Shown: one piece after another, positions 3,601-45,127 of the stretch | Position numbering within the stretch: position 1 is the stretch's first letter | Layout of the letters: each line of letters begins with the position of its first letter | NCBI GenBank assembly: GCA_947441115.1 | Contig: CANESS010000003.1 | Location: 1-45,127, forward strand | DNA: 45,127 nt | From: Saprospirales bacterium | Lineage (GTDB): Bacteria > Bacteroidota > Bacteroidia > Chitinophagales > JADJOU01 | Direction of reading: 5' to 3' | Notes under the pieces: generated by a model | What the model was told of the DNA's origin: nothing | The model's database searches: none | The model's input: only the letters and a program-made list of their open reading frames with translations | Position numbers and translations under genes: made by a program

Positions 3601-5494
3601 CGATAGTTTTGTTATTTTAAATCTAACTATCAAGGCCTTATCATTGAGAAATCTCCCTGTTACATTGTGTGACAATCAATCTTATGTATTTAAAGGAATA
3701 CCAAGGACTGCAGCAGGAATATATCGAGACACGCTTGTTAACAGTTTAGGCTGTGATTCAATAGTAACTCTCAATCTGACAGTAAATTCTAGAACCTATA
3801 GAACTATTTCTGACACCATCTGCTCTAACCAAGTTTATTCTTTCGATGGAAAAAATTTGAATGTAAGCGGCATTTATTACGATACATTACTAAACAGTAA
3901 AAACTGTGATAGTATTATAACGCTAAACCTATTTGTAAAGTCTATTTCGGCATTCAGCTTCAATCAATCCATTTGCTCAAACTCGAGTTATTTTTTCAAT
4001 GGATTGAATCGCACCACTGCTGGAATATATTTAGACACTCTAGTAAATAGTAGAGGCTGTGATAGCCTTTTCACGATGAACCTCACAATAAAAACTGCGA
4101 GCTCGTTTAGCTATAATCAAGAAATCTGCGTAGGTGATTCTATCCTATTCAATGGGGGTTATAGAAAGGTAAGTGGTACATTTCTAGATACCTTGGTCAA
4201 TAGCCAAGTTTGTGATAGCTTTATTACTTTAAATCTTGTCGTTCGGAATCCATCATTTTATAGTTTCAGCCTATCTCAGTGTAAAAATAATCCATACTTT
4301 TTCAATGGTTCTTTTCGCAATATCAGTGGTATATATAGAGATACATTGACTAATCAATACGGCTGTGATAGCTTTATTACATTAAATTATACTTCAAGAG
4401 ATACATCGAGTTATAGCTTTTCTGCAGAGGTTTGTCAAGGGGGTAGTTACTTATTCGGCAGCATACTCCGCACCGTTTCTGGCACCTACAAATTTACAAC
4501 CTTAAATACTAATGGATGCGATAGTGTTGTCACTTTAAATTTAACTGTTTACCCTACCTATTCTAGAACTATAGATACTAGTGTCTGCATAGGGAATTCC
4601 GTATTTTTCAAAGGCGGATTTATTTCCCTACCAGGAACATACACTGACAGTCTAAAATCCATATATAATTGCGATAGTTTGATTATTCTTAAACTCAACT
4701 ACAGTAACCCATCGTCTAAGAGGCTATACAGAAAATTCTGCCACAATTCAGGCGTTTGGTTTAACGGAATCTTTCAAACTAAAAGTGGTACTTATACTGA
4801 TACACTAGTCAATGCTAAAGGATGTGATAGTTTTTTAACTATGGTCTTATTTAAAGATACGGTGTATGTAAAAAATATTTCAGACTCCATCTGCGCGTAT
4901 GATAGTTTTAACTTCAATGGAAAGTTTTTAAAACTAGCTGGAGTTTATACTGATACGCTGAAAAATGCAGGAGGATGTGATAGTATTATCACGCTCAATT
5001 TAGTTAAATTTAGTCCAAGCACAATTACTCTATCCAAATATATCGCTAATGTCCTAATAACGCAAATTGGATTTCTCTCCTACCAATGGTTTTGGAATAA
5101 TACCTTTCTACCTAATGAAAAACGATACTATGCAGAGGTGAATAAATCTGGCAATTACAAGGTAATAGCATTAGATACCAATAAATGCTTCGCGAGTACT
5201 AATGACTATAATTTTATAACAAGCCGTATTTCTAATCTTAATAATGAGCATTTAGTCTTATTTCCTATCCCGGTCAAGGATAAATTGACTATTGAATTTA
5301 TCAATAGAAGTAAACCAATATCTGGAAGAATTGTTATTTATAATTTAGAGGGCAGAGCCATTCTGGAAAAAATATTTACACAAAATATGAATCCATTAGA
5401 AATAATGGTAGACCAACTTCCTAATGGAAACTATATCTTAGAATGTGGGATTGACACCGAAACAATTCACGAAAAAATATCTATAGAAAGGTAA
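695..5494 (+). CDS. large secreted protein: signal peptide, N-terminal domain, 7 SBBP beta-propeller repeats, 13 Cys-containing 'CDS' repeats of ~51 aa, T9SS type A C-terminal sorting domain
   Basis: seven (Q/L/F)W(A/G)TYYGG repeats; thirteen xxCDSxxxLxLxx repeats; C-terminus LFPIPVKDKLTI...IYNLEGR...LPNGNYIL...KISIER typical of a T9SS CTD. Confidence 0.88.
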   Translation: MKLIFTLFVLFLCCELVASHLNADKTHLGQQSNLGFEKNLGQVRGEDKDLVQYFYKSGNLTVFLNKKGLTYQFDQWEPISQTTDKKTNSKHESYRMDMELSGANYSATIIEEEPLTSYTNYYNFNILNVNSYKKITYKNIYPNIDWVIYFNSSDSKKEQFLKYDFLVHPGGKPEQIKLKIKWAEQANIDGQGNLHLMNSLGKIIEAKPISYQDQTIPIASSFELNQDILSFRLGSYDPTKTLTIDPLLQWATYYGGGALERGGFTTIDGSGFVYLCGHTASTTTIASGGHQTAYGGGLNDAFLVKFNSSGVRQWATYYGGTDDDRGAFCHVDKNNNVYLCGTTLSTASMASGGHQNTHGGDRDGFLVKFNAAGTRQWATYYGGSNHEDHTTCATDTGLNVYMAGTTESNNNIFATGGFQNTFGNLTDAYLVKFNASGTRQWGTYYGGTNFDEGAQCAVDKQGSVFLCGTTQSTTNISGSGFQNTKNSGRDGFLAKFNPNGTRQWGTYYGGPSADFGNSVCVDTLLNVYLSGFTYSTSSIASGGFQNSFGGANDAYLVKFNTNGSRLWGTYYGGSNGDYGPHCITDKFNNVYLTGYTLSTNAIAFAGIKNVFGGNIEGFVAKFNPSGTRFWGTYYGGANDDYLYSSVPDGFGNIYYSGVTLSSALISSGGHQNTYGGAEDAFLVKMSEDPIPYVEIFSNKGDTICQGDSIIFSRTDINGGTNPKYRWFRNNVLVDTTLNFKSGGFSTGDSVKCLMISNAVGLLYDSAWSLTIRFFVHPKKFTTLNIQLCRPQTYFFKSQARSATGTIIDTLASSKGCDSIITLNLTMKDTSSFNRYDTICSNQSLFFNGLPRSTAGIYKDTLVAANSCDSFIYLHLSIKSTTTRTIDSSICPKNPYFFNGDWRTASGTYLDTLINYRGCDSFITLKLTVKANSTKTIDTAICSGRSYWFKGQNRTTTGTYRDTLTNSVGCDSFVILNLTIKALSLRNLPVTLCDNQSYVFKGIPRTAAGIYRDTLVNSLGCDSIVTLNLTVNSRTYRTISDTICSNQVYSFDGKNLNVSGIYYDTLLNSKNCDSIITLNLFVKSISAFSFNQSICSNSSYFFNGLNRTTAGIYLDTLVNSRGCDSLFTMNLTIKTASSFSYNQEICVGDSILFNGGYRKVSGTFLDTLVNSQVCDSFITLNLVVRNPSFYSFSLSQCKNNPYFFNGSFRNISGIYRDTLTNQYGCDSFITLNYTSRDTSSYSFSAEVCQGGSYLFGSILRTVSGTYKFTTLNTNGCDSVVTLNLTVYPTYSRTIDTSVCIGNSVFFKGGFISLPGTYTDSLKSIYNCDSLIILKLNYSNPSSKRLYRKFCHNSGVWFNGIFQTKSGTYTDTLVNAKGCDSFLTMVLFKDTVYVKNISDSICAYDSFNFNGKFLKLAGVYTDTLKNAGGCDSIITLNLVKFSPSTITLSKYIANVLITQIGFLSYQWFWNNTFLPNEKRYYAEVNKSGNYKVIALDTNKCFASTNDYNFITSRISNLNNEHLVLFPIPVKDKLTIEFINRSKPISGRIVIYNLEGRAILEKIFTQNMNPLEIMVDQLPNGNYILECGIDTETIHEKISIER

Positions 5495-44465: not shown

Positions 44466-44497
44466 TAAATAAAGCTCCAAAGTTGGAGCTTTATTTA
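44466..44497 (-). terminator. intrinsic terminator downstream of tRNA-Leu
   Basis: perfect inverted repeat TAAATAAAGCTCCAA-ag-TTGGAGCTTTATTTA directly 3' of the tRNA. Confidence 0.85.
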
Positions 44498-44503
44498 AAA
44501 AAG

Positions 44504-44587
44504 TACCCGCGACTGGAATCGAACCAGCACTTCCTTGCGAAAACCAGATTTTGAGTCTAGCGCGTCTACCAATTCCGCCACACGGGC
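44504..44587 (-). tRNA. tRNA-Leu (anticodon CAA)
   Basis: GCCCGTG-TGGCGGAATTGGTAGACGCG-CTAGA CTCAAAA TCTGG-long variable arm-GCTGG TTCGATT CCAGT-CGCGGGT-A; 84 nt; CCA not encoded. Confidence 0.96.
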
Positions 44588-44616
44588 AGGTACATTTAAT
44601 TTGGAGTGTAAATATA

Positions 44617-44870
44617 TTATAATTCTTTATTTAAAACTCCAATTTCTTTCAATCAGTCTTTTCCTCTGGTCGATTTTAAATATTTCTCACGAATTCTAGC
44701 TTCTGACTAAGTATCGAAAGACTCTGTATGTATGATAGACCATGGCATATGTCTTTTTTATATCTATTGCCTCCTCAATTTTGTTCTTTTAATCTTATTT
44801 CAAGATCCTTAGACATTCCTACGTAGGTTCAACAACCTATAATGCTCAGTAAAACATAAACTATTATCAT
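44617..44870 (-). pseudogene. small GIY-YIG nuclease (SLX1-like/UPF0213-like, ~84 aa) pseudogene
   Basis: MIIVYVLLSIIGC*TYVGMSKDLEIRLKEQN*GGNRYKK, then after a frameshift HMPWSIIHTESFDT*SEARIREKYLKSTRGKD*LKEIGVLNKEL*; VYVL..YVG..L..RL..N...PW...A..RE..LKS pattern; 254 bp with one frameshift and four premature stops. Confidence 0.88.
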
Positions 44871-44940
44871 CCTTGAAAACCAGATTTTGAGTCTAGTGCG
44901 TCTGCCCATATCTGACGACAGGCAGGAATTCCGCCACACG
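44870..44940 (-). repeat. partial (5') copy of tRNA-Leu(CAA) with a 20-bp insertion in the D-loop
   Basis: matches 44532-44584 except for 2 substitutions, a 2-nt deletion in the variable arm and the insert at 44907-44926; lacks the first 3 nt, the T-arm and the 3' acceptor strand. Confidence 0.9.
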
Positions 44941-45043
44941 CTTGCAGATACTAAATTTAGATTTTAAATACAATAGATTTATTTATTAAGAAATCCTTTT
45001 TATTTCTTCCAAACCCTCCAATAAACTATTGACTAATGGTTAT

Positions 45044-45076
45044 AAAAAAGTGGCTGTCAAAATTGACAGCCACTTT
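45044..45076 (-). terminator. intrinsic terminator for the gene entering from the right edge
   Basis: AAAGTGGCTGTCAA-aa-TTGACAGCCACTTT hairpin with a U-tract on the minus strand. Confidence 0.8.
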
Positions 45077-45097
45077 GTGAATAAAATTATTTAATTA

Positions 45098-45127
45098 TTA
45101 CTTTATCACCTGCAGCTTACGCACAAT
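45098..45127 (-). CDS. 3' end of a gene beginning outside the window, possibly T9SS cargo
   Basis: ...IVRKLQVIK* resembles the terminal K(L/I)xxxK strand of T9SS CTDs and is followed by a terminator; only 9 codons are visible. Confidence 0.45.
   Translation of the reverse strand: MVRKLQVIK

Follow-up and report, generated by a model that had tools for sequence, protein, structure and literature searches.

A decayed GIY-YIG nuclease gene nested in a duplicated tRNA-Leu gene: a probable relic of a small integrase-free cassette found in Bacteroidota

Introduction

One end of a contig assigned to a Saprospirales bacterium raises the question of how a gene for a small GIY-YIG nuclease comes to lie between a partial and an intact copy of the same tRNA gene, with no integrase gene at hand. 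The window analysed is the whole of this contig (GenBank CANESS010000003.1, 45,127 nucleotides; C3 of the draft genome G000, which comprises 1.93 Mb with 36.6% G+C), and the locus occupies its last 650 bases, on the minus strand. An initial annotation of the letters alone had described a tRNA-Leu(CAA) fragment, a decayed nuclease gene and an intact tRNA-Leu(CAA), and had proposed a minimal selfish unit that travels with a tRNA segment and inserts at tRNA genes by cleavage and homologous repair. Comparison with related genomes upholds the layout and its enrichment at tRNA genes, while cleavage, repair and movement are steps that we infer. On balance, the locus is probably a dead copy of a selfish cassette of ~0.3–0.5 kb, devoid of an integrase and nested within a duplicated tRNA gene, which would have spread by nuclease-stimulated homologous recombination.

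The Decayed Cassette in the Window

The intact tRNA-Leu(CAA), apparently the functional copy kept or regenerated beside the cassette, was identified at positions 44503..44587 on the minus strand (ARAGORN; 53.6 bits with the Rfam model RF00005) and is followed by a terminator-type inverted repeat at 44466..44497 (self inverted match of 30/32). On its 5' side, beyond a 29-nt spacer (44588..44616), lies a GIY-YIG pseudogene of the UPF0213/SLX1 type and of subfamily A (44617..44870), recognised from its translations, from pieces of the PF01541 profile and from alignment to an intact unit in the related genome G003. Its frame of ~84 codons runs from an ATG at 44870–44868 to a TAA at 44619–44617. 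The spacer carries the promoter-like motif TATATTTAC at 44608–44616, in place of which the G003 unit has TATATTTGC; both the 29-bp gap and the -7-like motif had been read correctly at the outset. Three in-frame TGA codons, one TAG, a 1-nt deletion near 44760 that moves the reading from frame 1 to frame 3, and a glutamine in place of the invariant His30 mark the damage to the gene. Both halves of it match PF01541 below the cut-off of 22.6 bits, with 19.0 and 19.4 bits in a six-frame search and 20.8 and 17.8 bits when the frame was read with X at the stops, and such a sub-threshold score in two pieces fits a pseudogene. An alternative genetic code was considered for the three TGA codons and ruled out, since the adjacent genes of 388 and 817 amino acids are open under table 11 and a TAG codon and the 1-nt deletion are present as well; the normal state of the neighbouring genes indicates decay, not recoding, of this frame.

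The leader upstream of the ATG is derived from the same tRNA gene. Its distal piece (44871..44906, minus strand) abuts the start codon, the tRNA copy terminating in TCTGGTTTTCAAGG with no gap to the ATG; tRNA-Leu positions 21–49, which cover the anticodon arm, the preceding end of the D arm and the beginning of the variable arm, are repeated at 44875–44903 and are 28/29 identical to 44539–44567 (E 1.6e-10 in a local search). The proximal piece (44927..44945) consists of tRNA-Leu positions 4–17 (44927–44940, a local match of 14/14) and a remnant of the first bases. Between the two pieces lies the decayed right arm of a 20-nt palindromic element (CCTGCCTGTCGGCAGACAGG in G003) at 44907..44926, with three mismatches and no match in 100 shuffles, while the left arm is deleted. 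The initial description of this leader as the 5' two-thirds of tRNA-Leu(CAA) was therefore right as to a 5'-derived copy abutting the ATG and has to be amended in that two tRNA pieces are split by the relic of a palindrome. Farther upstream, alignment to the G003 unit reveals a decayed copy of the tRNA promoter region (44946..44990) that has lost the TTTG of its -7 motif. As originally noted, no integrase accompanies the cassette: the tyrosine recombinase profile PF00589 matches the genome twice, once each on C1 and C6, and finds nothing on C3 or on C46, the contig of the second cassette described below (serine recombinases were not searched).

An Intact Counterpart and the Fate of the Cassette within the Genus

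A DNA search of 30 relatives revealed an intact cassette in G003, a genome of the same genus. At least two tandem units are followed there by the same promoter and an intact tRNA-Leu(CAA), and the ends of contigs C82 and C23 both break within the repeat. Each unit reads promoter GAAATTTATATATTTGCACTCCAATATAAAAGTACCT, GCCC, CTGTCTGCCGACAGGCAGG, CGTGTGGCGGAATT, CCTGCCTGTCGGCAGACAGG, GGTAGTCGCGCTAGACTCAAAATCTGGTTTTCAAA, ATG, an open reading frame (ORF) of 81 amino acids and TAA, where CGTGTGGCGGAATT represents 14 nt of the tRNA, GGTAGTCGCGCTAGACTCAAAATCTGGTTTTCAAA the tRNA up to the variable arm, and the 20-mers CTGTCTGCCGACAGGCAGG and CCTGCCTGTCGGCAGACAGG are mutual reverse complements. The predicted fold of this leader is a 25-bp hairpin of -59.5 kcal/mol (z = -8.67); in the window copy the hairpin is lost (z = +0.57). 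The window cassette is alignable with the G003 unit from promoter to promoter, and differs by the deletion of the left palindrome arm, the three mismatches in the right arm and one missing base in the ORF. Because the fragment is part of a repeated, palindrome-bearing unit, it is the tRNA-derived leader of that unit and not a worn-out second tRNA gene. The initial view that this copy is a dead relic was borne out, as was the proposed check for intact homologs; the 20-bp palindrome to which attention had been drawn is a component of the G003 unit, and Chryseobacterium has it too, along with the same protein family.

Across the genus, the state of the cassette at tRNA-Leu(CAA) varies: G003 has it intact and duplicated, G000 has a full-length pseudogene, G004 and G009 retain no more than 3' remnants of the ORF, and G006, the closest relative (93% identity in the flanking gene), lacks it. 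The initial annotation had proposed to look for empty-site alleles in close relatives; the one cassette-free site is not a clean one: in G006 (L022, C29 1600–1800), the module of promoter, tRNA-Leu(CAA) and terminator is inverted between the same two flanking genes, with ~250 nt of unrelated sequence adjoining it. Public metagenome contigs from four runs of four studies (freshwater, lake, marine and unlabelled) contain the same dead cassette with 0–3 differences over positions 44551–45127. The dead cassette is a relic established in natural populations.

A Second Cassette and the General Plan

The same genome contains another cassette, with an undamaged ORF. On C46, an intact GIY-YIG ORF of 106 amino acids (PF01541, 58.2 bits) lies directly 3' of tRNA-Asn(GTT), and, read along that strand, a promoter and a 5' pseudo-tRNA-Asn containing the palindrome TCCCGCACGTGCGGGA precede the intact tRNA-Asn and a terminator; then comes the ORF, which is followed by a D-arm-like piece, TCCCGCACGTGCGGGA again, the last 15 nt of tRNA-Asn and a second copy of the terminator (91% identical). 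At the tRNA-Asn of G006 and G004, the downstream copy is nearly whole and the palindrome replaces the 5' strand of the anticodon stem; the last codons of the ORF (...LAQLVRVPHVRD) fall there in the D arm and the palindrome, and the TAA in the anticodon loop serves as its stop codon.

Two arrangements recur among the loci compared. In the standard form, the intact tRNA is followed by its terminator, the ORF, a copy of the 3' part of the tRNA in which one to three GC-rich hairpins interrupt the T loop or the anticodon arm, and a copy of the terminator; other subfamilies show it at tRNA-Glu, tRNA-Val, tRNA-Lys, tRNA-Leu(TAA), tRNA-Met and tRNA-Phe. The mirror form, to which the window belongs, has a promoter, the 5' part of the tRNA with hairpins, the ORF, the promoter again and the intact tRNA, and was found elsewhere at tRNA-Glu of Chryseobacterium, with an identical 20-nt palindrome in the anticodon loop, at tRNA-Ser of a Bacteroidales metagenome-assembled genome (MAG) and at tRNA-Gln of Omnitrophota MAGs. 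In both forms the unit measures 0.3–0.5 kb and contains a single ORF. A live unit, as reconstructed from these loci, is predicted to consist of a GIY-YIG gene limited to the catalytic domain, at least one GC-rich hairpin, and a partial copy of the host tRNA with its promoter (mirror form) or terminator (standard form); the gene would therefore always stand between an intact tRNA and a hairpin-disrupted copy of that tRNA, with all parts on a single strand. No group I intron ribozyme was detected in a tRNA by an Rfam scan of six loci (16.5 kb, E up to 0.1), in which all hits were tRNAs apart from a single chance match, and the intact tRNA is uninterrupted.

Association with tRNA Genes

The linkage to tRNA genes was analysed in three sets of genomes. 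Five genomes of the same genus yielded 38 matches to PF01541, including five UvrC proteins and a single weak match within a long frame; the 27 loci fetched cover 31 of the 32 small GIY-YIG matches. An intact tRNA on the same strand adjoins the ORF in 17 of these loci (upstream in 16, downstream in one), and the upstream tRNAs end ~35–60 nt before the ATG, or ~33–89 nt from the matched domain. A search of species-representative genomes with a three-sequence alignment of subfamily A found a same-strand tRNA within 110 bp in 23 of 34 loci, four of which repeat places in G003 and G009; a tRNA is absent beside three alphaproteobacterial and two weak matches. Subfamily A extends from Chitinophagaceae (Hanamia, Ginsengibacter, Ferruginibacter), Chryseobacterium, Saprospiraceae and Bacteroidales to Omnitrophota, Melioribacteraceae and Balneolaceae. 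In a sample of 61 Bacteroidota genomes, the best-scoring locus of each of 29 genomes was scanned for tRNAs, and a same-strand tRNA was present within 200 bp in 10 of the 29, an opposite-strand one in none. Altogether, 48 of 99 domain rows (two ORFs account for two rows each) lie within 200 bp of a tRNA, and in all 48 the strand is the same, against a background of ~0.65% of the G000 genome, by our own arithmetic, lying that close to its 26 detected tRNAs; the counts describe a pattern and are not to be read as a P value.

The linkage follows the phylogeny of the nuclease. The tree from a quick maximum-likelihood analysis of 88 small GIY-YIG domains, based on an alignment of few columns and weak in its inner topology, splits with a support of 95 in the SH-like approximate likelihood ratio test (SH-aLRT) into clades of 65 and 23 rows. 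The larger clade contains 43 tRNA-linked rows (all on the same strand), 10 later members of arrays, eight rows at contig ends and four without an intact tRNA, whereas in its sister clade 22 rows are unlinked and one lies at a contig end; the latter clade is of the ~100-amino-acid MERGGYIYI type and includes a gene of the same genome on C117. A BLAST search with a tRNA library found tRNA fragments in nine of the ten tested loci that were at contig ends or had been scored as having no tRNA, L034 being the only one without them; among the four clade rows without an intact tRNA, three (two of three loci) have such fragments. These genome comparisons indicate that tRNA-nested GIY-YIG cassettes are a widespread layout in Bacteroidota and in some other bacteria. 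The enrichment of homologs for a full and a partial copy of one tRNA, and for tandem arrays, here of up to five units, had both been foreseen from the single locus.

Several features point to a high turnover of hosts and copies. The 43 linked rows occupy 17 tRNA species, and parsimony on the tree, weak as it is, requires at least 20 changes of host and eight changes of side. Five identical units of 382 bp form an array in G070, pairs occur in seven other places, and many matches lie at contig ends, as expected for repeats. The number of small GIY-YIG genes varies from 1 to 11 per genome within the genus, and pseudogenes and truncations are frequent among the cassettes. The sporadic distribution and degeneration characteristic of Seg-type genes are thus seen both in this copy number and in the intact, decayed, truncated and absent states at tRNA-Leu(CAA). 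At the tRNA-Asn of G004, the first terminator is of the cassette type of G000, G006 and G009 and the second resembles that of G002, as expected for an imported unit that brings its own terminator.

Fragments of the same tRNA are present at four of the 26 tRNA loci of G000, namely tRNA-Leu(CAA), tRNA-Asn, tRNA-Ala(GGC) and tRNA-Val(TAC). Downstream of its tRNA-Val(TAC) (C69, ~5045–5180), two terminators enclose the hairpin TTCCCTGCTTGACTGCGTCAAGCAGGGAA and a 17-nt fragment of the tRNA 3' end, with no nuclease gene. Three relatives of the same genus (L035, L036 and L038) have a GIY-YIG ORF at tRNA-Val, where the two types of terminator occur in the opposite order.

The Encoded Protein

ORFs of the cassettes, read from ATG to stop, encode 73–106 amino acids that comprise the catalytic domain only. 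Residues Y5, Y16, G18, R26, H30, N31 and E62 are invariant in alignments of 12 and of 27 intact members, and intact relatives exceed the gathering score of PF01541, with 45.7 bits for the C117 protein of the same genome and 42–64 bits within the genus. A profile search of PDB sequences gave seven hits, to the UPF0213 proteins 1zg2 (E 3.8e-14) and 1ywl (E 3.9e-13) and to SLX1 chains (E 1e-8 to 1e-6), and to no other family; on these matches the cassette proteins are assigned to the UPF0213/SLX1 cluster of GIY-YIG nucleases. The intron-endonuclease model TIGR01453 matched 5 of 12 members weakly at the N terminus (residues 4–35; best E 3.9e-5, far under the cut-off). Prediction of a homodimer for the subfamily A protein (27-row alignment, two copies) scored 0.03 and 0.07, the mark being 0.42, which speaks neither for nor against a dimer. 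Close relatives were not found in viral contigs, where none of 41 pattern hits was confirmed, and the 13 matches in phage records all had identities below 60%, those listed being below 40%, which gives no sign of a phage vector.

COG4123 is a tRNA m6A methyltransferase. The 2006 survey of the GIY-YIG superfamily places such bacterial proteins in the SLX1 cluster, is silent on adjacency to tRNA genes, and describes bacterial SLX1-like domains fused to the COG4123 methyltransferase and to a TrmH-like SPOUT domain (PMC1564403).

Disrupted tRNA Copies and Palindromes

When each adjacent tRNA with 45-nt flanks was mapped back onto its own locus, nearly all linked cases proved to have a second, partial copy of that tRNA across the ORF from the intact one. 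The copies break recurrently at tRNA positions ~21–25, 34–36, 55/56 and 60/61 and in the variable arm, that is, in loops or at the ends of arms, and run into the terminator (standard form) or promoter (mirror form), often with 100% identity. None of the disrupted copies matched the Rfam tRNA model at E 0.1, and their acceptor stem cannot pair. They therefore look like DNA-level homology or relics and not like tRNA mimics, and the other option of the initial annotation, a tRNA-like leader serving as a regulatory or substrate RNA for the nuclease, gains no support.

Two classes of palindrome interrupt these copies. In the TCCCG...CGGGA class, exemplified by TCCCGCACGTGCGGGA, TCCCGAATTAAATTCGGGA, TCCCGATAGCTATCGGGA, TCCCGTTCCGTAAGGAACGGGA and TCCGGCAGTTGCCGGA, the interior covaries and stays complementary. 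Of the 43 linked loci, 19 have a perfect TCC..GGA hairpin within 250 bp, as do 3 of the 22 loci of the unlinked clade, whereas a generic count of perfect stems of at least 7 bp separated the two groups poorly (28 of 38 linked against 20 of 44 unlinked regions). The CCTGCCTG...CAGGCAGG class goes with subfamily A and is located, in Chitinophagaceae, in the T loop of the copied tRNA-Glu; G002 lacks both a subfamily A gene and this palindrome. The palindrome CCTGTCTGCCGACAGGCAGG is common to G003 and Chryseobacterium, whose proteins are only 57% identical. In the T-loop hairpin of subfamily A downstream of the ORF at tRNA-Glu (L053, L055, L056, L058 and L060), the stem is constant and the central 11 nt are reverse-complemented between loci, ACTGCGTCAAG versus CTTGACGCAGT; judging from the sequences, either the loop has flipped or the element has been inserted in both orientations.

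The palindromes also occur by themselves. The 16-nt palindrome TCCCGCACGTGCGGGA is dispersed in 3–16 copies per genome in the genus, compared with none for the reversed control, and 8 of the 20 sites fetched adjoin tRNAs without a GIY-YIG gene. In G004 (L111, C15 451–1007), six tandem pseudo-tRNA-His units of 81 bp stand ahead of an intact tRNA-His with no GIY-YIG gene, and in each unit (fold z -4.15) tRNA positions 1–25 are joined to the palindrome TCCCGCAGGTGCGGGA, after which come 12 nt from the anticodon arm and an A-rich spacer. The 16-mer is central in two other repeats of ~100 nt without similarity to tRNA (L118, L124 and L125 of G009, and L117, L127 and C51:11593 of G000), which may represent families resembling miniature inverted-repeat transposable elements (MITEs). 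Degenerate copies of it lie in G000 at C2:13991, ~40 nt downstream of tRNA-Pro(TGG), and at C18:5186, ~110 nt upstream of tRNA-Ala(GGC), which has a 32-nt fragment of itself upstream. The unlinked subfamily F gene on C117 of this genome (L003) carries a TCCCG hairpin, TCCCGATAGAAATCGGGA, at 1494–1511 in the 5' extension of its ORF; the association with hairpins may thus reach beyond the tRNA-linked clade.

Proposed Mechanism and Alternative Explanations

In the explanation that we prefer, the tRNA-derived flanks would act as portable homology arms. The nuclease, as a relative of SLX1, would nick or break tRNA-gene DNA at stem-loop (loop) positions, or the hairpins of the element itself, and the homologous recombination of the host would then copy or integrate the unit, by gene conversion or by a Campbell-type single crossover in the shared tRNA segment. 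The outcome would be an intact tRNA and a displaced, disrupted copy; tandem arrays could arise from repeated events or from unequal crossing-over. Either of two events would yield exactly the observed order: one crossover, within the shared segment, of a circular unit with the tRNA gene, or double-strand-break repair from a filled donor. The hairpins may serve as a site for the nuclease, protect the disrupted copy or be mobile units in their own right. The ORF might be expressed from the tRNA promoter, through the unit's own copy of it in the mirror form and probably by read-through or co-transcription in the standard form, and the nuclease gene would decay after fixation, which is the state of the window copy. 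A wider proposition, possible though short of probable, is that these cassettes form an unrecognised class of minimal bacterial mobile elements, in which an SLX1/UPF0213-type nuclease limited to the catalytic domain and its own proliferating hairpins use the near-universal sequence of tRNA genes as homology arms, enter the same tRNA in unrelated genomes without a recombinase and always rebuild a working tRNA.

A number of observations weigh against this explanation. The mechanism is drawn by analogy from the kinship with SLX1 and from the phage nuclease SegB, and recognition of structure by the nuclease is assumed from SLX1 alone. The evidence is comparative throughout, and neither cleavage, nor an excision product, nor movement was observed. 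No additional DNA-binding domain is present in the ORFs of 73–106 amino acids, which makes sequence-specific homing as in the Seg and I-TevI enzymes unlikely, and the fusions of SLX1-like domains with tRNA methyltransferases are a hint of a role at the RNA level instead. The intact tRNA is often 100% identical to the duplicated segment, which leaves its escape from repeated cutting unexplained. Hairpins also occur away from GIY-YIG genes and tRNAs, and G003 contains 10 B16 palindromes but no subfamily B gene, so that the link between hairpin and nuclease is a loose one. The genomes compared are kin and not independent, and the linkage counts consequently overstate the statistical weight. No clean pair of filled and empty sites with alignable flanks was obtained, the only cassette-free relative being G006 with its inverted tRNA. 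Finally, joints skipping or deleting the cassette were absent from the metagenome contigs of the four runs, which cannot show rare variants, expression or absence; together with the 0–3 differences, this gives no sign of current activity at the locus.

In one alternative explanation, the hairpins are the actual mobile units. They would then resemble MITEs or the repetitive extragenic palindromes (REPs), the GIY-YIG protein would be a structure-specific nuclease acting in trans, analogous to the REP-associated tyrosine transposases (RAYTs), tRNA stem-loop DNA would be the preferred target, and the duplications would be by-products of repair. We regard this explanation, which overlaps with the preferred one, as unlikely. 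It would readily accommodate the dispersal of the 16-nt palindrome, including its sites at tRNAs devoid of a GIY-YIG gene, the nuclease-free pseudo-tRNA-His array of G004, the presence of two or three hairpins in one disrupted tRNA copy, the inversion of the hairpin loop between loci, the hairpin and 3' fragment at the tRNA-Val of G000, the hairpin in the unlinked subfamily F gene and the joint absence of subfamily A and its palindrome from G002. It is at odds, however, with the B16 palindromes of G003, which have no matching nuclease gene, and with the restriction of perfect TCC..GGA hairpins to fewer than half of the linked loci; by itself it does not explain the duplication of promoters and terminators or the foreign-type first terminator, and the joining of DNA by GIY-YIG enzymes is not known.

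A host function would be a different solution. The gene could have a tRNA-related job at the RNA level, such as processing, surveillance or defence, and stand beside tRNAs for co-expression, with the fragments and arrays being ordinary local duplications. The invariable strand, the tight spacing between tRNA and ATG (in one locus, the ATG lies 3 nt after the tRNA end), the conserved catalytic residues and the fusions to COG4123 and SPOUT domains described in the survey (PMC1564403) are all compatible with it, but the 17 host tRNAs with at least 20 switches on the tree, the 1 to 11 copies per genome of the same genus, the frequent pseudogenes, truncations and contig-breaking repeats, the foreign-type terminator at one locus and the disrupted copies that lack acceptor stems and go undetected as tRNAs are not what such a gene would be expected to show, and we consider it somewhat less likely still than mobile hairpins. 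Hardly credible, and contradicted by the data, is that the fragment is the attachment-site scar of a larger integrase island or a decayed second tRNA-Leu, with the GIY-YIG gene as an unrelated passenger. Direct repeats of tRNA parts around foreign DNA are indeed the signature of integrases, the breaks in the anticodon and T loops appear to resemble known integrase sublocations, and a repeat of the type left by integrated elements lies downstream of tRNA-Glu in G000 and of tRNA-Leu in G003 and G009. Yet PF00589 is matched on other contigs only, the whole unit is 0.3–0.5 kb long and tandemly repeated, the fragment belongs to the repeated G003 unit and carries its palindromes, and 17 tRNA species show this arrangement, in every case with a protein of the one clade. 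Both versions had been named in the initial annotation as readings that would overturn its proposal.

Comparison with Known Systems

The closest known analogue is SegB, a GIY-YIG enzyme encoded in the tRNA cluster of T4/T6 phages. SegB is reported to cut within tRNA genes and to drive a tandem amplification of tRNA and segB, the repeats arising through microhomology of the 5' end of the tRNA with the 3' end of segB (PMC13096335). SegB homologs are reported to be frequently associated with tRNAs in phages (PMC13096335, PMC2330249). In our own reading, the SegB cleavage motif RAWTSGAAC resembles, on the other strand, the T-loop-coding GTTCGAA. A GIY-YIG gene among tRNA genes is a precedent for the cassettes. 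SegB has an added DNA-binding region. It is a phage enzyme, in contrast to the chromosomal UPF0213/SLX1-type proteins described here, which are limited to a catalytic domain of 73–106 amino acids, and, unlike the cassettes, its locus has neither a hairpin-disrupted tRNA copy nor a duplicated promoter or terminator.

Among solved structures, the best sequence matches are the UPF0213 proteins BH0048 (1zg2) and EF2693 (1ywl), of the E. coli YhbQ type, and eukaryotic SLX1, which share the catalytic motif set with the cassettes; SLX1 differs in having a RING domain and in requiring SLX4. We know of no established role for bacterial UPF0213 proteins, and our literature search found no paper linking them to tRNA genes. 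Integrase islands and prophages resemble the cassettes in that part of the tRNA is directly repeated around the foreign DNA while the tRNA itself stays intact, and in the position of the junctions, in anticodon and T loops (the sublocation rule); the cassettes differ in lacking an integrase, in their size of 0.3–0.5 kb, in a repeat that often includes the promoter or terminator, in the palindromes interrupting the displaced copy and in the mirror form, which duplicates the 5' part. Endonuclease ORFs of fungal mitochondria, such as the GIY-YIG ORF at atp6 of Allomyces, bring a replacement end for the host gene and leave the displaced native end as a fragment, and the mitochondrial GC clusters and double-hairpin elements are short GC-rich hairpins that insert nearby. 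These are organelle elements with protein-coding hosts and nucleases of other subfamilies. With REP/RAYT systems, the cassettes share dispersed short palindromes flanking a single-copy gene of nuclease type; RAYT, however, is an HUH Y1 transposase, whereas the cassette gene is a GIY-YIG nuclease without known joining activity, and REPs are not nested in tRNAs.

In the full-text literature searched, the coverage of which leaves subscription journals largely outside, small bacterial GIY-YIG genes nested in duplicated tRNA genes are not described. The initial impression that no characterised system has this layout therefore agrees with our search, SegB being the nearest. The cassettes differ from the SegB case in enzyme subfamily, minimal size, chromosomal setting, the disrupted tRNA copy and the palindromes, and are apparently undescribed; if the mechanism of hairpin plus homology arms were true, there would be a fair case for seeing in them more than a variant of a SegB-like system.

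Small stand-alone GIY-YIG proteins of the UPF0213 type are widely annotated without a known role, and the nesting of one clade in duplicated tRNA genes gives them a testable function. If the proposal is correct, it would be the first biological role for the large group of "GIY-YIG nuclease family proteins", and would explain the arrays of hairpin-interrupted pseudo-tRNAs. It would also provide an integrase-free route of selfish DNA to tRNA genes and extend the cut-and-amplify result of phage GIY-YIG enzymes to bacterial chromosomes. In practical terms, cassettes at tRNA loci cause breaks in short-read assemblies, the pseudo-tRNAs that they create can mislead annotation, and the number of tRNA copies may change through their action.

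Flanking Features and Minor Observations

The cassette in the window is flanked by an arginase-family gene and a CcmF-like gene. The locus is bounded on its outer side by the terminator of the upstream gene (45047..45076), with the end of the contig at 45127, and the same gene end and terminator are present in G006 and G004. Comparisons at two other tRNA genes of G000, tRNA-Leu(TAA) with G002 and tRNA-Glu with G009 and G003, were alignable only upstream of and through the tRNA. A sequence of ~130 nt (...AAACCCTCGAAACTCAATGTTTTCGGGGGTTTTTGC...GTCCCC...) is common to the 3' side of tRNA-Glu in G000 (C89 5561–5700) and of tRNA-Leu(CAA) in G003 and G009 (L019 354–480; L021), and resembles the end of another, larger tRNA-inserting element. 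At L091 (G053:C33), a locus with a run of N, two "tRNA-Pro(AGG)" genes called by ARAGORN are disrupted copies of tRNA-Ala, in which a hairpin of 9 bp with a GTAA loop takes the place of the anticodon arm.

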